Assembly: GCA_947629745.1 (NCBI GenBank) | Contig: CANREZ010000001.1 | Coordinates: forward strand, 125,181-189,180 | Origin: an uncultured Clostridia bacterium | Lineage (GTDB): Bacteria > Bacillota > Clostridia > Christensenellales > UBA1242 | Length of the DNA: 64,000 nt | Direction: 5' to 3' | In this document: in pieces, positions 13,630-35,170 of the stretch | Position numbering within the stretch: position 1 is the first letter of the stretch | Layout: the number at the start of each line of letters is the position of its first letter | The notes under the pieces: model-generated | What the model was told of the DNA's origin: nothing | Database searches by the model: none | Seen by the model: the letters and a program-made list of their open reading frames with translations, nothing else | Program-made: the position numbers and the translations under genes

Positions 13630-14514
13630 GTGGAGTGCAATGGTTGTCCTAGGCACTGCAAAGTAGACCGGGCAAAACATCGTGGATATTGTGGAGCGAG
13701 TGAGGATATCACTCTTGCGCGTGTGTCCGTGCATATGGGGGAAGAACCACCTATCAGCGGTACGGCAGGTAGTGGGACTATATTCTTTAGCGGTTGCAAT
13801 CTAAAATGCGTGTTTTGCCAAAATTCCGACGTTTCCCGCAATGTAGTAGGAGAGACTATCTCGGTGGATAGACTAGTCGAGATATTCCACGAATTAGAGG
13901 AAAAAGGTGTGCACAATATAAACCTTGTGACCCCTAGCCATTATGTGTCAAAAATCAGGGATGCTCTTAAAATTTACAAGCCAAGTATCCCTATCGTGTA
14001 CAACACCAGTGGCTACGATAGCCTTGAGGCTATAGATAGTCTAGCTGGCCTTGTGGATATATATCTAACTGATCTAAAGTATTGCGATAGTACTCTATCT
14101 AATAAATACAGCAGTGCTGGGGATTACTTTGATGTAGCGACGGCTGCAATCAAGGCTATGTACAGGCAGGTTGGACCACTCGTGTTGGATAGCACGGGCA
14201 TTGCAAAGCGCGGGCTTATTATCCGCCACCTAATACTTCCCGGTTGCACTGACGATAGCAAGAGAGTGCTCGATTGGATAGCACGCAATACACCTGATGC
14301 TACAGTGAGCCTGATGAGCCAATATACACCTATGTATAGGGCAAAGGAATTCCCTGAGATCAACCGCACTATTACAAAACTTGAGTACAAAGTAGTGCTA
14401 AATTATTTGAACAAACTAGGTCTTGACGGATATATGCAAGATATGTCAAGTGTGGGGGAGAGCACTATTCCCGACTTTAACCTAGAAGGAGTGAAAAAAT
14501 GTATTACGAAATAA
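13630..14514 (+). CDS. Radical SAM protein, PflX-like (pyruvate formate-lyase activase homologue family)
   Basis: 294 aa with a CNLKCVFCQN CxxxCxxC cluster motif and an N-terminal CxxC..C region. GTG start. Confidence 0.8.
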   Translation: MECNGCPRHCKVDRAKHRGYCGASEDITLARVSVHMGEEPPISGTAGSGTIFFSGCNLKCVFCQNSDVSRNVVGETISVDRLVEIFHELEEKGVHNINLVTPSHYVSKIRDALKIYKPSIPIVYNTSGYDSLEAIDSLAGLVDIYLTDLKYCDSTLSNKYSSAGDYFDVATAAIKAMYRQVGPLVLDSTGIAKRGLIIRHLILPGCTDDSKRVLDWIARNTPDATVSLMSQYTPMYRAKEFPEINRTITKLEYKVVLNYLNKLGLDGYMQDMSSVGESTIPDFNLEGVKKCITK

Positions 14515-15752
14515 ACGTGTCAGATGAGCTATATGCTTTGGCTCGAGAATTTAGCAAAGCAGGTAGCACCCTGTATATCGTGGGTGGATACGTGCGAGAT
14601 AGCGTACTCGGGCTAAAAAATACCGATATAGATATCTGCGCGGACCTAAAATATGACGCCGCTATTGATCTTGCGAAGAAACTAGGCTATGAGGCAAAAA
14701 TAGTCAACGAGAAACTCGGCACTATTAGCATCAAGACCAAGCACGATGCATATGAGTACGTTACATTTAGGAAAGATAATTATAGCAAAGGCGGAGCGCA
14801 TAGTCCAGATAGTGTATCCTATGTGAAGGATATCCGTGTGGACGCTGCAAGGCGTGACCTTGCCGTAAACGCTATGTACTATGACATACTCTCTCACGAA
14901 TTACTAGATTTTTATAACGGCCTTGCAGATTTGAAGCGTGGAGTGATTCACTCAGTCACCCCAGCAAGTGAGGTATTCGCTAGTGATGGGCTAAGGATTT
15001 TGAGGCTGATTAGATTCTCGCAGGCACTAGGGTACAAGATAGATGCAGAGACTGCTGCAGTGGCAAAAAGTTTTGTGTCAAACTTAGCAGATATATCCAA
15101 AGATAGGATAATAGGTGAATTGCGTGCCATTGTAGAGCAAGCAGATAGATACAGCGTGCCAAGTGCCATAAAACGCTCTATCAAACTTATCAACGCTTGG
15201 CATATTATGGACCAAATTATCACCATTGGTGGCAGGAAGATAGATTATCACGGGATAGACAAAGTGGAGCGCGGCAATAGATTTGCCATGTTACTTTATA
15301 GGATATTCGAGCCATATGTATCTAGATGCAATAATTGTGAGGAATATTACCTCCACAATGTGTTAGGCAGGGGAGGACTCGGCGTCAGCAATAATCTTCT
15401 TGATATTGTGTCACACTTAGTTTCTATCACCCACACTGAGCCAAATCATTGGAGTGCTTATCAATTTAAGGCACTAAATACTGCTGAGCGTGACCTGTTG
15501 CGCGTGATAGATAGCGGTCTTTATAGCAAATATTATGACCTAACCCGTGATATGGAGAGTAATCACATGCCATTCACTCGCCATGACCTAAAGATTGACG
15601 CGAAATACGTTTCCTCTACGATTAAGAATCCTCGCGACACAGGTTACTACCTAGATAGGTTGATGTATGAAGTGTTGGAGAAGAACCTCCCGAATGACAA
15701 GAAACATTTAGAGTCCATGCTCCAGACCATACTCCTATCCGAGAATGTATAA
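14499..15752 (+). CDS. cca: CCA-adding tRNA nucleotidyltransferase / poly(A) polymerase family protein
   Basis: 417 aa. Head-domain motifs YIVGGYVRDSVLG and DIDI. Overlaps the upstream gene by 16 nt. GAAGGAG RBS. Confidence 0.8.
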   Translation: MYYEINVSDELYALAREFSKAGSTLYIVGGYVRDSVLGLKNTDIDICADLKYDAAIDLAKKLGYEAKIVNEKLGTISIKTKHDAYEYVTFRKDNYSKGGAHSPDSVSYVKDIRVDAARRDLAVNAMYYDILSHELLDFYNGLADLKRGVIHSVTPASEVFASDGLRILRLIRFSQALGYKIDAETAAVAKSFVSNLADISKDRIIGELRAIVEQADRYSVPSAIKRSIKLINAWHIMDQIITIGGRKIDYHGIDKVERGNRFAMLLYRIFEPYVSRCNNCEEYYLHNVLGRGGLGVSNNLLDIVSHLVSITHTEPNHWSAYQFKALNTAERDLLRVIDSGLYSKYYDLTRDMESNHMPFTRHDLKIDAKYVSSTIKNPRDTGYYLDRLMYEVLEKNLPNDKKHLESMLQTILLSENV

Positions 15753-15760
15753 ATATATTA

Positions 15761-15787
15761 GAGACTCTCATAGCAGAGTCTTTTTTA
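15761..15787 (+). terminator. Rho-independent terminator after cca
   Basis: AGACTCT/AGAGTCT stem followed by TTTTTT. Confidence 0.75.
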
Positions 15788-15855: not shown

Positions 15856-16248
15856 GTGGCACGCCACTGTGCTTGGGTGATAATGAAGTGAACGGATATT
15901 ATTTTTTAAGAGAGAATGATGTTGGAATGTGAGATTGGTAGTAAGCACGCTCAATCCCCTCAGTTGGCAAAAGCCAACAGCTCCCCCTACTACGGGGCGC
16001 CTAAAAGCGGATAAAACCATATAAGGCTCCCTTTTAGTAAGGGGAGCTGGCGGAAACTTCCGCCTGAGGGGATTGAGGCGACTTACGGGCCTACTTGGTT
16101 CGCGCTCATGACTCACTTGTATAATTTCATATTTATAGATTAAAAATTAAATTAAAATGAAGATGTAGTGTTAACAATTTACATAAAGATATAGACACAG
16201 TATTAACACAAGAATAATTTATTATAATCAACGAGAGTGGCGTGCCAC
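15856..16248. repeat. GC-rich hairpin-mosaic element, compact copy (element 1), bounded by inverted GTGGCACGCCAC / GTGGCGTGCCAC termini
   Basis: The left 95 nt are homologous to 26493-26585. A 128-bp imperfect palindrome at 15950-16077 is built from two inverted copies of the 52-nt motif. It lies between convergent genes. Confidence 0.8.
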
Positions 16249-16292
16249 ACTGAGGGGACTAACGCGTGCACTTGTTCCCGCCTATGTAACAA

Positions 16293-17150
16293 CTACATTC
16301 CTTCAAAATTTATTAAATACTCCAGTAGATCGATTGGGAGAGACTTGTTTTTGGCGGAGATGGAGGAGCGTAAATGTAATGGAAGAGGAGTGTCAAATTC
16401 CTCTGGACCCACCTCTATGGTGAATGCTGGGGTATGGTAGTGCTCGCTGATAAAATCCGAGTACCCACCTGTGCTATGCTCGGTCTTGATAGGAGTGTAG
16501 CCACAAATACTGGATAAATATTCGGCAATAGTCTTGTCACGGGATATTTCGTTATCCGTTAGCGCCTCAAAGCCGTAGTATATCACCTCACCTTTTGCGT
16601 GGTAGGATAGGGTTGCGATAGGCTTGACTTTTTCGGTGAAAGCGATTAGCACCCGTGTTTCTTTCTCGCTATTTGGATAGTACCCCACGAAGTTTGCGGG
16701 TGCGGGGCAGAAGACATTTTGTGCTCCACCTGCCCAGTGTGCGTCAAAATTCACATTTAGGTCTACGCCTAGGCCATTTGCCTTCCACCGACTAAAATCA
16801 AGTGCGTTATTATTTAGTATAGATAGATACTCTCTAGATACTGTGCAGGGGACACTAACAAGGCCGTCTAAAACTAATGCGACGCCATCGGGATTTGCAA
16901 AAGGGATGAAATATATCCCACCAGTCTCTACTCCGTGATTTACTGCATACACTATTTGGTCTATCACGCACAGTCCTGCCATATATTCTCGTGCGTGGAT
17001 GGAGCCCTCCACTATTATCTGTGGTCCTGAGTATGAGCCAACATGCAGGGCATAAATATTCCTGCCAAAAGTCGTTGTGCCGATGATCTCATAGTCTATT
17101 CCTTGGTCAATGAGGGCAGTTATCTCAAGGATGATATCTTCAAAATCCAT
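16293..17150 (-). CDS. M14-family zinc carboxypeptidase (gamma-D-glutamyl-diamino-acid peptidase-like)
   Basis: 285 aa with the HxxE zinc motif GSIHAREYMAG and a later H in the SYHAKGE context. Confidence 0.75.
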   Translation of the reverse strand: MDFEDIILEITALIDQGIDYEIIGTTTFGRNIYALHVGSYSGPQIIVEGSIHAREYMAGLCVIDQIVYAVNHGVETGGIYFIPFANPDGVALVLDGLVSVPCTVSREYLSILNNNALDFSRWKANGLGVDLNVNFDAHWAGGAQNVFCPAPANFVGYYPNSEKETRVLIAFTEKVKPIATLSYHAKGEVIYYGFEALTDNEISRDKTIAEYLSSICGYTPIKTEHSTGGYSDFISEHYHTPAFTIEVGPEEFDTPLPLHLRSSISAKNKSLPIDLLEYLINFEGM

Positions 17151-24737: not shown

Positions 24738-24747
24738 GATATCTCCT

Positions 24748-24834
24748 TTATTGCATCATTATACAACTTTTGATGCAATAAATCAAGCATTTATTTTAGT
24801 TTATTGCATCATTTGATATATTTTGATGCAATAA
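24748..24834. promoter_or_regulatory. Two copies of a 34-bp palindromic operator (TTATTGCATCA-N12-TGATGCAATAA)
   Basis: The copies lie at 24748-24781 and 24801-24834, with centres 53 bp apart, in the divergent region between fic and 24945. The first copy abuts the fic RBS. Confidence 0.7.
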
Positions 24835-24944
24835 AATGAATTTTATAAGGGTAATAGTCAATTTCTCAATAATGCTTTTCTTCATCACAATTGCCTATTG
24901 ATTTGGAGTGGTTAGTATGGTAAAATATTTGTGTTGAGGTATTT

Positions 24945-26474
24945 ATGATAGATAATGCAAAGGCAAGTATAAATAGTGTGCAAGATTACGTCTATTATTT
25001 GATGTTAAAGAGGACCACTTACAGTGATCACATTGTGGTGGAAGTAAAGCGTGAGGATCTAGTAAGTCCAAATTTTTCACGCGCTATTCGGGATCAATTA
25101 TTTGTTATGCTTGCTGGTGGCAAACGTGTAGAATTCCATTGTATTGACAAGGATTTGTACTTTAGAGAAAGTGAAGCCTTAAAGTTACTTGGCGACTATG
25201 AATATCTTAAGGCTCATGGTTGTGAATTATATTTCCGCGAGACATTGGATGATATGGGGATAGAATTTAGTCTAGACGAAGCTGATAGACTTGACTATTT
25301 TACAATAGGCTCCAACAATAAAACGTATGAGAATGATGATAGGGTTCAGGCTGGCAAATTGGATTGGGATAAAACGGGCAAGACTATGACAACGCCAATA
25401 ACATTCGATCAAGTGATGGAGGCAAATTCAAAGATCCTCTCCGTTGCAAATAAGATAAATAGATATGCAGAGGAACATAATATCTCTCCATTTGAGAAAT
25501 TCTTGATCTGCCGCAAATACATTTGTAAAAAAATTGAATATATTACCGAACCTGTAGTGGACACGCATAGTTATATTGGCACTATACTTGCAATGAAAGG
25601 TTGTTGTTCGGGTGAAGCACAATCACTTAGAATTTTACTCAAATTATGTGGGATAAATTCATTTTGCATTAGCACAGATATTAATGCAAAGGATGTAAAT
25701 CTTTCCCTTCCACTAATGAGGAGATATAGCGGAGTCAATACGCTTATTTATGAAGGTAAAGAGTTAACCATAGATGAGTATGAAAAGATTTGTATAGACA
25801 AAATTAATAGCTTAGAATCTAAGGAAATGTCTACAAATCACGCCATCAATATAGTCCAAATAGATGATGATAAATATGGCATGCATGGAATAGGCGCTAC
25901 TGATCCTACCGGGAGTAATGATTTTGAATTACTATTCATAAAGGACAAAGAATGTCTTAATAATTTATTCAACTTTTCATCATATATACGTCTTTTACAC
26001 GGTAATGGATTTGAGGAGTTCATCCGAAATGTAGAGCAGAACACGATAAGCAAGGATGATTACAAAAAGATTGATGAAGATATTTTCAGTTTTGCAAAAA
26101 TGTCAATAATAGAACAGATAAAGGGAAGTACGCCAAAGAAATTAACAGATGAAGACCATAATGCAATGGCTATTTTCCTGAATGCGATCATTAAGTGTAA
26201 AACATTATCATCCTTGGAATATATAATGGATCTTTATAGTATGGGTCAAAATTCCAGCGAAAGTGAGTTAGCGCGTCATATATTCCCTCGCATTAAGAAT
26301 AACAAACTTGGAGCGTATTGCTTAATAAAAGAGGCTATTAGTAGTCGTGCCACACTCGAGAATCTGCCAAGGCTAGAGCCATTGTCGGTAGATGACTATG
26401 CGTGGGCTGACATAGTGTCAGACAAAGCATACAATGCTATCTTCCCTGAGGATAGCAACAACACGCAAAGATAG
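24945..26474 (+). CDS. Hypothetical protein with a central transglutaminase-like cysteine-protease core
   Basis: 509 aa. A candidate Cys-His-Asp arrangement is KGCCSGEAQSLRILLKLCGI ... NHAINIVQIDDDKYGMHGIGATDPT. Confidence 0.55.
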   Translation: MIDNAKASINSVQDYVYYLMLKRTTYSDHIVVEVKREDLVSPNFSRAIRDQLFVMLAGGKRVEFHCIDKDLYFRESEALKLLGDYEYLKAHGCELYFRETLDDMGIEFSLDEADRLDYFTIGSNNKTYENDDRVQAGKLDWDKTGKTMTTPITFDQVMEANSKILSVANKINRYAEEHNISPFEKFLICRKYICKKIEYITEPVVDTHSYIGTILAMKGCCSGEAQSLRILLKLCGINSFCISTDINAKDVNLSLPLMRRYSGVNTLIYEGKELTIDEYEKICIDKINSLESKEMSTNHAINIVQIDDDKYGMHGIGATDPTGSNDFELLFIKDKECLNNLFNFSSYIRLLHGNGFEEFIRNVEQNTISKDDYKKIDEDIFSFAKMSIIEQIKGSTPKKLTDEDHNAMAIFLNAIIKCKTLSSLEYIMDLYSMGQNSSESELARHIFPRIKNNKLGAYCLIKEAISSRATLENLPRLEPLSVDDYAWADIVSDKAYNAIFPEDSNNTQR

Positions 26475-26492: not shown

Positions 26493-27164
26493 GTGGCACG
26501 CCACTGTCCTAGGGTGATAATGAAGTGAACTGATATTATTTGTTAGAGGGAATGATGTTGGCATGTGAGATTAGTAGTAAGCACGCTCAATCCCCCTTAC
26601 TAAGGGCGGCCTTTAAATAAGGACGGAATAGATATATGAGAGAGTATGGAGCACGAATGTAAGTAAGCAAAAAAAGTCGGCTCAATCCCCTCAGATTGCA
26701 TACGCAATCAGCTCCCCCTACTACGGGGCGCCTAAAGCGGTTAAAATTAAATAAAAAGATGGAACAATCGCTTAAACAAGCATTATATATTTGGGGTCCC
26801 CATAAAAATAGCTTGCGGCAAAATAGGGCATCCCGCAAAAATAGTCGTAGACGTACTTTTTGTGGGAAAGAGGAAGAGTCGAGTGATACCTCGGGAGTTT
26901 GTGCGAACAGCACAAAATTTCGTTTTAAACTCGTGCTCTGACGAGGGGAGGAGGCGAAGTCACGCGATACCCGGAAGTTGGCTGAGCGTATAAAAAATGC
27001 GAAGCCAACGCTTAAACGAGTGTGTACACTAACGGGGTCCCCGCAAAAATAGCGGAACGCGGCCTTTTGTGGGGAGAGGAGGAACAAATGCATAACCTGA
27101 AAGATTGTTCCATGATTTGTAAAAAAAATGGAACAATCGCTTAAACAAGCATTTGTTCCGACGA
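26493..27164 (-). repeat. GC-rich hairpin-mosaic element, long copy (element 2), fused to the 3' end of tRNA-Leu
   Basis: It starts right after the CCA of tRNA-Leu with a terminator hairpin and ends at GTGGCACGCCAC (26493-26504). It contains the 52-nt motif (26681-26732) and CAAAA/TTTTG-stem hairpins (26832-26866, 27039-27074). It is an inverted homologue of 34446-34997. Confidence 0.8.
27121..27159 (-). terminator. Rho-independent terminator of tRNA-Leu (part of element 2)
   Basis: On the minus strand: GGAACAAATGCTT-GTTT-AAGCGATTGTTCC hairpin followed by TTTTTTTT. Confidence 0.8.
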
Positions 27165-27249
27165 TGGTGCGGATAGGGAGACTCGAACTCCCACGGATTG
27201 CTCCACATGCCCCTCAAACATGAGCGTCTGCCAGTTCCGCCATATCCGC
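27165..27249 (-). tRNA. tRNA-Leu (anticodon GAG)
   Basis: Type II tRNA: GCGGATA acceptor, anticodon stem-loop CATGT-TTGAGGG-GCATG, long variable arm, T-loop TTCGAGT, encoded CCA. Confidence 0.85.
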
Positions 27250-27381: not shown

Positions 27382-27400
27382 TGAAGGGTATCCTGAATAT

Positions 27401-27476
27401 GGGGAATTAACTCAGTTGGTAGAGTGCTTCCGTCACATGGAAGAAGTCATAGGTTCGAGTCCTATATTCCCTACCA
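27401..27476 (+). tRNA. tRNA-Val (anticodon CAC)
   Basis: The cloverleaf folds by hand. The anticodon stem-loop is CTTCC-GTCACAT-GGAAG, with an unusual G at position 32. The D and T arms are identical to tRNA-Val(GAC) at 35032. CCA is encoded. Confidence 0.75.
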
Positions 27477-27483
27477 TAGAAAA

Positions 27484-34368: not shown

Positions 34369-34445
34369 GGCGGTATAGCTTAGCTGGTTAGAGCGTCCGG
34401 TTCATACCCGGAAGATCATAAGTTCGATTCTTATTACCGCTACCA
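34369..34445 (+). tRNA. Elongator tRNA-Met (anticodon CAT)
   Basis: GGCGGTA acceptor and anticodon loop TTCATAC as in Bacillus elongator Met. Not Ile2-like. CCA is encoded. Confidence 0.8.
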
Positions 34446-34997
34446 CGTCGGAACAAACGCTTGTTTAAGCGATTGTTCCATTTTTTTTCACAAAACATGG
34501 AACAATCTTCCAGGTTTCGCGTTTGTTCCTCCTCTTCCCCACAAAAGGCCGCAAGCTATTTTTGTGGGGGCCCCGTTTATGAACGCGCTCGTCTATGCGC
34601 TCAGCTAACTTCCAGGTTTCGCGCGGCTTCGCCTCTTTTCCAGCAAAAGGCCGCGTTCCGCTATTTTTGCTGGAGTTTTTAGTAGGTCGAGAAGTAGGTT
34701 TTTTATAAGGATAAATTAAGTATTTAGCAGGTTATGCGTTCGTCACAAAAAGCTGTAAGCTACTTTTGTGGAGATAAGAAAGTATTTATAAAATTGCAAA
34801 AAAAGAAGACATAGAAAGTATGTCTCATCTTTTTTCATATTTCTCACTATAAGGCGCCCCGTAGTAGGGGGAGCTGGATGCGTTAGCAGACTGAGGGGAT
34901 TGAGCAGACTATTGTGCAAATCTTATGTGCCAACTTCTGTCCCACTAAATAGTTAAATAAGTACACCTAATTTACATTTAGTGCAGTGGCGTGCCAC
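34446..34997 (+). repeat. GC-rich hairpin-mosaic element, long copy (element 3), fused to the 3' end of tRNA-Met
   Basis: It begins at the base after CCA with a terminator hairpin (34450-34488). It contains CAAAA/TTTTG-stem hairpins (34537-34569, 34640-34673, 34744-34770) and the 52-nt motif (34853-34904). It ends at GTGGCGTGCCAC (34986-34997). Confidence 0.8.
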
Positions 34998-35023
34998 AAA
35001 AAAAGGTCTCATATTGAGACCTT
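34998..35023 (-). terminator. Rho-independent terminator of tRNA-Val(GAC)
   Basis: AAGGTCTC/GAGACCTT stem with a T-run on the minus strand. Confidence 0.8.
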
Positions 35024-35031
35024 ATTTCTTA

Positions 35032-35107
35032 TGGTACGCGATATAGGACTCGAACCTATGACATCCTCCACGTCAAGAAGGCACTCTACCAACTGAGTTA
35101 ATCGCGC
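35032..35107 (-). tRNA. tRNA-Val (anticodon GAC)
   Basis: GCGCGAT acceptor, anticodon stem-loop CCTTC-TTGACGT-GGAGG, T-loop TTCGAGT, encoded CCA. Confidence 0.85.
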
Positions 35108-35170
35108 ATATGCTATATAATATATATAACATATATAGCTTTTTGTCAATTATTTTTTGTTAATTGCTAT

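Follow-up and report, generated by a model that had tools for sequence, protein, structure and literature searches.

What kind of sequence is Element 1, a 393-bp stretch (15856-16248) that lies between two convergent genes in an uncultured Clostridia bacterium (UBA1242; GenBank assembly GCA_947629745.1)? We analyzed a window of 64,000 nucleotides around it (contig CANREZ010000001.1, positions 125,181 to 189,180 of the forward strand), and coordinates are positions in this window unless another contig is named. An original prediction, made from the sequence alone, had described Element 1 as a four-way palindrome inside short inverted termini, suggestive of a compact non-autonomous mobile element. 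We find that Element 1 is two separate units that abut tail to tail, and not a single 393-bp transposon with terminal inverted repeats. The units belong to a dispersed, structured repeat family that turns over quickly and is associated with gene ends. They are probably, though well short of certainly, members of a new family of intergenic repeats of the REP (repetitive extragenic palindromic) or BIME (bacterial interspersed mosaic element) type.

Element 1 consists of two convergent units

As predicted, the 12-mer GTGGCACGCCAC is present at 15856-15867 (+ strand) and, as its reverse complement, at 16237-16248. The window contains four exact copies of this 12-mer (15856+, 16237-, 26493+, and 34986-), versus 0.04 expected by chance. 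Between the two copies in Element 1 is a core of 128 bp, which runs from CTCAATCCCCTCAG at 15950-15963 to CTGAGGGGATTGAG at 16064-16077. The 14-mer CTCAATCCCCTCAG also occurs four times in the window (0.36 expected), and the two 52-nt arms of the core (15941-15992 and 16035-16086) are 73% complementary. Because the 12-mer and the core recur singly, at 26493-26739 and at 34997-34846, we conclude that Element 1 is two units. Each 12-mer is the 5' end of a separate unit and is found solo elsewhere, so the original view of the 12-mers as the inverted termini of one element does not hold.

We describe the copies with R1, a covariance model of the 64-nt arm, which was run over the window without filters. 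R1 matches four full arms (all intergenic), one partial arm, one faint relic (16226-16267), and nothing else. The units and their parts are:

15856-16008, + strand: unit 1L, with the 12-mer, an 82-nt variable spacer (15868-15949), and an arm; 92-100% identical to unit 2 outside hairpin 1
15856-15867, + strand: 12-mer GTGGCACGCCAC, the conserved 5' end of unit 1L
15946-16008, + strand: arm of unit 1L (R1 66.8 bits, E = 6e-19)
within this arm, + strand: CTCAATCCCCTCAG, hairpin 1 (15964-15977), CAG, and hairpin 2 (15980-16000, GCTCCCC/GGGGCGC)
16001-16025, no strand: 25-nt inter-arm linker, which holds the tail motif AAGCGGATAAAA, common to other copies
16018-16081, - strand: arm of unit 1R, with hairpin 1 at 16049-16064 and hairpin 2 at 16026-16047 (R1 70.3 bits, E = 5e-20)
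16018-16248, - strand: unit 1R, with GTGGCACGCCAC (16248-16237), a 158-nt A+T-rich spacer (16236-16079), and the arm
16226-16267, - strand: degenerate arm remnant, TTAGTCCCCTCAG followed by GTGGCACGCCAC (weak R1 match, 8.4 bits, E = 0.42)
26493-26739, + strand: unit 2, solo, with the same 12-mer, a partial arm (26586-26615), and a full arm (26677-26739)
34846-34997, - strand: unit 3, solo (R1 60.6 bits), which starts directly after the terminator of a tRNA-Val gene (35003-35023)

From 5' to 3', a unit is made up of GTGGCACGCCAC(T), a spacer, the invariant CTCAATCCCCTCAG, hairpin 1, CAG, hairpin 2, and a tail of the form GCGGAWAAAA. The units are 150-230 bp long, and their spacers (~80-160 nt) vary in both sequence and length. 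Hairpin 2 has the pattern GCTCCCC-loop-GGGG(A/C)GC, and the second hairpins of units 1L and 1R are only 25 nt apart. The tail GCGGAAAAT is also found 3' of the arm in unit 2 and in the copies from Ruminococcus sp. RGIG4744. Beside the right-hand 12-mer, the arm remnant is linked to the arm of unit 1R by a direct repeat, D3 (16250-16266 and 16064-16080). No target-site duplication is visible at Element 1, where the original prediction had suggested looking for one, or at the single units. Element 1 is preceded by TTCAAT and followed by ACTGAG, and the flanks of the four window units have no duplicated or common bases.

The partial arm of unit 2 (GCTCAATCCCCCTTACTAAGGGCGGCC) is without hairpin 1 and without the CAGCTCCCC segment. 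It looks like the result of a deletion between two CCCC tracts, in which case unit 2 would have 1.5 tandem arms.

Element 1 contains no credible open reading frame (ORF), as the original prediction had said: two spurious ORFs overlap with Element 1, and neither has a Pfam match. We also considered a small peptide and rejected it. A 33-codon frame runs across arm 1L and a 22-codon frame runs across unit 2, while stops close the frame in units 2b and 3.

Because an independently assembled ENA contig (L028) is 100% identical to the window over 15912-16400, Element 1 is not an assembly artefact. Another metagenome contig of the same strain (L022) ends at its position 1863, which corresponds to 15863, inside the 12-mer. 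This break shows that the repeat fragments short-read assemblies.

Folding and covariation of the arms

The proposed four-way junction was borne out. The minimum-free-energy fold of the core reproduces it exactly, with an outer stem, two side hairpins (TTGGC/GCCAA at 15964-15977 and GGCGGA/TCCGCC at 16049-16064), and a central arm (CAGCTCCCC with GGGGAGCTG). Folded as DNA, 15941-16086 has a free energy of -45.3 kcal/mol, versus -19.4 +/- 2.8 kcal/mol for shuffled sequences (z = -9.3). The whole 393 nt, folded as RNA, gives z = -9.2 for the + strand and z = -10.4 for the - strand. Single units are no more stable than their shuffles (z = -1.5 and -0.6), so the stability of Element 1 comes solely from the inverted juxtaposition of two units. 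The canonical head-to-head dimer of other genomes, described below, is as strongly folded as Element 1 (z = -8.6) and is branched alike but inside out. The four-way palindrome results incidentally from the tail-to-tail meeting of two units, a rare arrangement in the family.

Across 68 distinct arms from the window and other genomes, 94% of the cells in paired columns are standard pairs, versus 74.5% after shuffling of columns and 40-62% with slid partners; these figures overstate independence, as the copies are related and were aligned to fit the model, but by eye the pattern is unambiguous. Both helices of the arm are 92-96% paired across copies. In hairpin 1, all six pairs (6/6) show double compensatory changes. 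In hairpin 2, the pair at the foot is G-C in the arms of the window's type (A arms) and C-G in a second type (B arms). There is no strand signal from G-U pairing: across the arms we counted 6 G-U pairs and 17 A-C mismatches, which gives no support for an RNA from the forward strand.

Hairpin 1 is a hot spot that evolves faster than its flanks. Units 1L and 2 are identical at 139 of 147 positions outside hairpin 1 and at 8 of 14 positions inside it (15964-15977 versus 26695-26708; Fisher p = 3e-4), and two of the changes inside are compensatory pairs. The four copies in the window have four different hairpin-1 stems between identical flanks. These stems are of 5-6 bp (TTGGC, ATTGC, and GGCGGA) with loops of 4 nt, and one copy pairs over only 3 bp. 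Either selection or template-switch mutation could explain this pattern, and a hairpin that changes quickly yet is always paired is a tractable handle on selection versus a mutational mechanism.

The family in other genomes

We scanned one genome per species for the core pattern and found it in 21 contigs from five metagenome-assembled genomes (MAGs): Clostridiales UBA4696, two uncultured Oscillospiraceae, Ruminococcus sp. RGIG4744, and a Clostridia bacterium. A scan of metagenomes added five more contigs. In the window and these 26 loci, R1 finds 70 arms at E < 1e-5; the loci were picked because they contain the motif, and the counts of copies are not genome-wide. We found no match to the family in viral or phage records, and we rejected a phage or viral origin.

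In these genomes, the usual form is a dimer: an inverted B arm, a spacer whose length falls into a fixed class (20, 26, 34, 50, 69, 99, or 109 nt), and a forward A arm. The inverted B arm reads GCCTCCCC-loop-GGGGAGG-TG-hairpin-CGGAGGGGATTG. Among pairs of arms at most 200 nt apart, 21 are head to head, 10 are head to tail (in arrays with a period of ~175 nt), and just 2 are tail to tail. The core of Element 1 is one of those two. In the MAG with high GC content, a T run is often found 3' of hairpin 2.

The junction of the B arm in RGIG4744 reads GGGGAG-GTGGCACGCC. Because of this junction, we read the window's 12-mer as what is probably a relic of a second, inverted arm, the rest of which has decayed to A+T-rich sequence.

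The UBA4696-like genomes have a conserved module of at least 190 nt that ends, on its 3' side, in the A arm (L001 7469-7623, L024 880-1089, L025 1-180, and L027 5040-5251). Besides this arm, the module has the hairpins AGCGTTTTCTTTTG...CAAAAGAAAATGCT and GCAGT...ACTGC. Three unrelated flanks follow it downstream, each beginning exactly after hairpin 2 (GGGGAGC).

B arms (for instance L020 6656-6721 and L031 2493-2546) contain GGAGGTG and CACCTCC on opposite strands, partly sequestered in hairpin 2. The first is a perfect extended Shine-Dalgarno sequence and the second resembles an anti-Shine-Dalgarno sequence, which may be a coincidence in a G-rich motif.

Gain, turnover, and gene context

Element 1 lies between convergent genes, as predicted, and the spacer between the two genes is 540 nt long. 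The genes and the likely terminator of cca are:

14499-15752, + strand: cca gene, for the CCA-adding enzyme (Pfam PolyA_pol)
~15760-15787: terminator-like hairpin and T run of cca, read from the sequence (weak terminator-type Rfam match)
16293-17150, - strand: gene for a peptidase M14 (carboxypeptidase), convergent with cca (Pfam Peptidase_M14)

As the original prediction had proposed, we compared this spacer among relatives. In two distant relatives (L029 and L030; cca 44% and 41% identical), the genes for radical-SAM, cca, convergent M14, and CmpB follow one another as in the window. Their spacers between cca and M14 are of 44 and 37 nt and hold a single bidirectional terminator-like hairpin, and R1 has no match in ~10 kb of either locus. 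These empty sites imply that the 540-nt spacer is a lineage-specific expansion. For a comparison of filled and empty sites among close relatives, the material is two contigs of the same strain (L022 and L028). The original prediction had also said what would count against it: a sequence that is syntenic in all relatives and has no other copies, or a fold like that of shuffles. The site is empty in both relatives, other copies exist, and the fold is far more stable than shuffles.

Turnover is also seen between two nearly identical strains, L024 and L027, whose flanks are ~99% identical. At the same site (L024 226-370 and L027 4584-4641), one contig has 2 arms and the other has 1, with another hairpin-1 sequence and an indel of ~110 nt.

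By type of intergenic region, 20 arm matches are in tandem regions, 11 are in convergent regions, and 1 is in a divergent region, with the gene context taken from our home-made, self-trained codon-usage gene caller. In tandem regions, the arm points with transcription in ~9 cases and against it in 2, which is suggestive but not significant and depends on this caller. All four window units (4/4) are co-oriented with the upstream gene, but we set this aside as trivial, with three of the units between convergent genes. The neighbors of the arms are housekeeping genes. In the window, the genes around units 2 and 3 encode YjbR, HD, MFS, DegV, YabP, and YabQ proteins, and the repeats leave the interpretation of the neighboring genes unchanged.

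Among the 94 ORFs that lie no more than 1.5 kb from an arm, Pfam recognized 58 families, with no recurrent transposase and no other recurrent neighbor protein among them; there was one lone resolvase. Regular-expression searches for Y1/HUH enzymes and tblastn with E. coli RayT also found nothing in the window and 31 loci. A coding element or parent insertion sequence with the same ends, for which the original prediction had suggested searching, was absent from the sampled DNA. The sole nuclease-like neighbor is a DUF559 gene (Vsr-like endonuclease fold) at L019 3855-4291, which ends 10 nt before an A arm; this is probably a coincidence.

In the window, only tRNAs reach the Rfam gathering score. 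In E-value mode, Element 1, the canonical dimer, and the Sphingomonas copy described below have only chance-level matches to hairpins, so we rejected known ribozymes and riboswitches. At the other loci, the Rfam matches are a T-box, a TPP riboswitch, and tRNAs, none of which lies at an arm.

Relationship to known repeats

The closest format that we know of is that of the CGTC-tagged REPs (Di Nocera, De Gregorio & Rocco 2013, PMC3733652). In this group, the stem-loop is accompanied by a short tag and a CCA tail, and most members form head-to-head dimers with conserved spacers of 20-100 bp that have complementary ends. They are found near the 3' ends of genes, in unidirectional or convergent spacers, and they have no dedicated transposase (PMC3733652). 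They occur in several phyla, mainly in the Alphaproteobacteria, and the word Firmicutes is absent from the text of that survey (PMC3733652). The window's family shares most of this: short extragenic stem-loops whose stem sequence is free, mostly head-to-head dimers, conserved 20-100-bp spacers with complementary ends, unidirectional or convergent sites near 3' gene ends, a range of several phyla, and no dedicated transposase. Also, some B arms in related MAGs read CCGTC-stem-loop-stem-GCCA, with a CGTC-like tag and a CCA tail, although the TC is often paired.

The differences lie in the tag, the stem, and the tail. The CGTC tag (or TGTC or CCTC) is absent from the window's arms, which have CAG-T, CAG-A, CAG-T, and CAG-G before the stem. 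The tag of CGTC REPs is unpaired, whereas the "tag" bases are paired in many copies of the window's family. In CGTC REPs, the stem is 8-9 bp long and opens with two A-T pairs, and the loop is of 4-5 nt, while the window's stems are of 5-6 bp and do not start with A-T pairs. The tail of CGTC REPs is an unpaired CCA; all of the window's copies (A arms) have CAG instead, and B arms in MAGs and Sphingomonas have (G)CCA. Finally, arms of the window's family contain a second hairpin that is conserved in sequence (GCTCCCC/GGGGAGC), which is outside the definition of CGTC REPs. Because the tag, stem, and tail of the window's copies differ and there is an extra hairpin, we do not file the family under CGTC-1 to CGTC-4, although it is closest in format to the CGTC-tagged dimers.

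In REPIN/RAYT systems (Bertels & Rainey 2011, PMC3116915) and TIRtron/TIRYT systems (PMC3733652), inverted doublets of palindromes with a spacer are non-coding, multicopy, and inherited within lineages, as in the window's family. In contrast to these systems, no RAYT or TIRYT gene was found for the window's family in the window and 31 loci. Also, neither stem in the window has GTAG or CTAC beside it, as the REPIN tag would require, and CTAC appears solely in the loop of hairpin 2. And unlike the arms of REPINs and TIRtrons, those of a dimer here belong to two types, A and B, with different hairpin-1 sequences.

The BIMEs of E. coli are mosaics built from palindromic units with few types of linker. 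The window's family resembles them in being mosaics of palindromic units in alternating orientation, with few linker types, 3' of genes (PMC2817692). It differs in its sequence, which is unrelated, in its Gram-positive host, and in its two-hairpin arm. Other hairpin-forming elements of bacteria include Correia/NEMIS, ERIC/IRU, RUP, BOX, and bcr1, which are among the MITEs (miniature transposable elements with inverted repeats). A classical MITE is marked by defined terminal inverted repeats, by target-site duplications (TA in the case of Correia), and by a parent insertion sequence that can be recognized. Like the hairpin-forming MITEs, the window's repeats are non-coding, intergenic, rich in inverted repeats, 100-400 bp long, and probably co-transcribed with their neighbors, but none of the classical hallmarks was seen for Element 1.

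Literature searches by sequence string gave unrelated primer matches only, and searches by keyword for MITEs in Ruminococcaceae or Faecalibacterium gave nothing relevant. The window's family is an ordinary kind of bacterial repeat for which we found no catalogued or published match.

A similar repeat in sphingomonads

A BLAST search of PLSDB with the canonical dimer gave matches only in replicons of the Sphingomonadaceae. The repeat there is ~125 bp long, unannotated, and intergenic (for instance, L031 2493-2622, from Sphingomonas parapaucimobilis NZ_CP155751.1), and it occurs at 163 places in 15 records from Sphingomonas, Sphingobium, and Novosphingobium. Its layout is CCTCCCC-loop-GGGGAGG-TG-hairpin-CGGAGGGG, a spacer, and a mirror arm. 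Over 48-57 nt, its identity to the B arm of RGIG4744 is 81-87%, and R1 scores it at 25.7 and 25.5 bits. The R1 match is what links the window's A arms to this repeat.

Like the window's family, the sphingomonad repeat has two-hairpin arms in head-to-head order and is multicopy and intergenic. It differs in that its host is an Alphaproteobacterium, both of its arms are of type B, and its spacer is only ~20 nt long. The replicons with this repeat, from a collection without main chromosomes, have no homologue of RayT. The likeness may come from a single family that spread horizontally or from convergence on a shared format for recognition. That Sphingomonadaceae have arms of this layout is relevant to the spread of REPs that lack a dedicated transposase, a question left by PMC3733652.

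How might these repeats have spread?

If Element 1 is indeed two tail-to-tail copies of a REP- or BIME-type repeat, the repeats would spread, or would once have spread, as DNA through a trans-acting enzyme. The conserved flanks, the free stems, and the conserved unit ends fit recognition of single-stranded hairpins, and the enzyme would recognize the arms in this folded form. The obvious type of candidate would be a Y1/HUH enzyme (RAYT or TIRYT), none of which was found in the window and 31 loci. The most concrete model of mobilization may be the long "double palindromic" inverted repeats that flank RAYT-like genes and are also dispersed as dimers (PMC3733652). At the RNA level, transcripts that read through from cca and M14 would carry the repeats in their 3' ends. 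The stem-loops would there act as barriers to 3' exonucleases or as insulators between the convergent genes, and such a passive 3'-end role is probable.

Several observations weigh against this reading. An exact 13-mer, GTGGCACGCCACT, is conserved in four units that have otherwise diverged, which decay of an old arm does not explain. The window's arms have no U run, hence they are not classical terminators, and the suggested role in 3' ends is purely an inference. The empty sites are in distant relatives only (cca 41-44% identical), where loss is a formal possibility. No insertion event is seen at single-nucleotide resolution, and a target-site duplication and a defined outer boundary are both missing. 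We found no mobilizing enzyme in ~340 kb around the repeats. And covariation within palindromes does not require selection, as template-switch mutation or gene conversion between copies can produce it.

Its main rival is that each unit is a small RNA gene, with GTGGCA as the -35 box, a -10-like hexamer 16-17 nt further on, and a two-hairpin 3' domain, so that Element 1 would be two convergent small RNA genes with complementary 3' ends. Three of the four units have suitable boxes (GTGGCA-N17-GATAAT at 15856-15884 and 26493-26521, and GTGGCA-N16-TATAAT at 16248-16221), and the fourth has TAAATT at the same spacing. The conserved ends around a variable middle would fit, as would the covarying stems and the position of unit 3 between two terminator-like hairpins, and the strongest argument for still considering this rival is that GTGGCACGCCACT is exactly conserved. 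However, a promoter scan gave 2-5 sites per 1.1 kb versus 2.4-2.7 in shuffles, with each site weak, and units 1L and 2 are copies of each other, not independent cases. In other MAGs, a G+C-rich hairpin without a -10 box occupies the homologous position, G-U pairs are not commoner than A-C mismatches, single units fold no better than shuffles, and most arms lack a U run. Given also the lack of an Rfam match, we consider small RNA genes improbable. The original prediction had allowed for a structured RNA more generally, which may still apply; there is no Rfam match and no G-U strand signal, and the empty sites argue against a conserved RNA specific to this locus. A sigma-54 promoter was rejected: there is a TGGCAC, but its distance to the GC of a -12 box is inconsistent among the four copies. 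The idea of a MITE, in which 15856-16248 would be one non-autonomous transposon with GTGGCACGCCAC termini, moved by the transposase of a parent insertion sequence, fares worst, and we give it only a very small chance. It would account for a perfect 12-bp inverted repeat far above chance, for the lack of coding capacity, and for the empty sites in L029 and L030. But the same 12-mer heads two solo units without an inverted partner, no direct duplication flanks 15856 or 16248, and the two halves are independent units of unequal length whose spacers cannot be aligned. Moreover, in related genomes the 12-mer sequence is internal to the arm, not terminal, and no transposase was found in the window or the loci. 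From the original proposal of a non-autonomous mobile element, what stands is a non-coding, dispersed repeat with no transposase nearby; what does not is that it is one transposon with terminal inverted repeats.

Two further explanations concern how the copies arose. In a strict REPIN or TIRtron system, a single-copy Y1/HUH gene (RAYT or TIRYT) elsewhere in the genome, flanked by arms, would move the repeats as single-stranded hairpins. Conserved structure with free stem sequence is what recognition of folded single-stranded DNA would lead one to expect, and head-to-head dimers do predominate. Also, RAYTs of Group 1 are known in Clostridia (PMC5581495), and the dispersed double palindromes near RAYT-like genes resemble the arms (PMC3733652). 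Against this, the window and the 31 loci contain no Y1 transposase, no RayT homologue is on the sphingomonad replicons with the look-alike, and no GTAG tag is beside the stems. The published motif GGGGWSAS is not matched by GGGGAGCT or GGGGAGGT, and the CGTC-type REPs, which are closest in format, have no associated transposase either, so a strict system of this kind seems unlikely. Alternatively, the repeats might never have been mobile: they would be bidirectional barriers to transcription or binding sites for proteins such as gyrase or nucleoid proteins, copied locally by recombination and slippage and kept after genes by selection. The strong placement at gene ends (1 of 32 arm matches in a divergent spacer) would fit, and so would the T run that often follows hairpin 2 in the high-GC MAG. 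Slippage would fit the arrays with a 175-nt period, the site with one versus two arms, where the difference is bounded by direct repeats, and the partial arm at 26586-26615, a deletion between two CCCC tracts. But the same arm is found on unrelated upstream modules and flanks, at many loci and in several species, which requires dispersal beyond local slippage. The window's arms have no T run, and for the same convergent gene pair a spacer of 37-44 nt is enough in two relatives. We therefore consider it very unlikely that the repeats were never mobile.

More speculatively, and with a low probability in our view, the two-hairpin arm might be the recognition module of a phylum-spanning mobilization system, still to be found, for "orphan" REPs that lack a RAYT. 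The module would be a hairpin conserved in structure only, between invariant CCCCTCMG and CASCTCCCC, followed by a C4/G4 hairpin conserved in sequence, and gut Clostridia would share it with Sphingomonadaceae. The fast rewriting of hairpin 1 would then point to active change templated by the hairpin, through cleavage and re-synthesis or through template switching, and not to passive decay. As part of this scenario, the decayed second arm in the window's lineage may have been exapted as a promoter, which would turn the units into small RNA genes. The finding would gain weight if the cross-phylum arm does mark a new mobilization system or if the units are expressed.

For genome annotation, the family matters in a more practical way. 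Such repeats break metagenome assemblies, create spurious ORFs, and may be taken for transposons or regulatory RNAs. With a covariance model of the arm, annotators could mask the family, which is seemingly common in uncultured Oscillospiraceae.

Other repeats in the window

A second, unrelated repeat family is present at 26750-27165 and 34445-34680, between units 2 and 3 and the 3' ends of tRNA genes (tRNA-Leu at 27165-27249, - strand, and tRNA-Met at 34369-34445, + strand). It has a long terminator-like hairpin, GGAACAATCGCTTAAACAAGCNTTTGTTCC, with a T run, and also CCCCACAAAAGG...CTATTTTTGTGGGG hairpins. Together, the arms and this second family form an imperfect inverted duplication of ~500 bp (80% identity) around ~7.3 kb of ordinary genes (27.2-34.4 kb). 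At its inner-left and outer-right edges are two tRNA-Val genes, tRNA-Val(cac) at 27397-27483 and tRNA-Val(gac) at 35025-35111, which are inverted and 83% complementary. Altogether, eight tRNA genes are spread singly or in pairs across 23-53 kb.

Two near-perfect palindromes of 36 nt, TTTATTGCATCA...TGATGCAATAAA, lie 53 nt apart at 24747-24835. They are just upstream of an ORF of 509 amino acids (24945-26474) with no Pfam match, in an operator-like arrangement.

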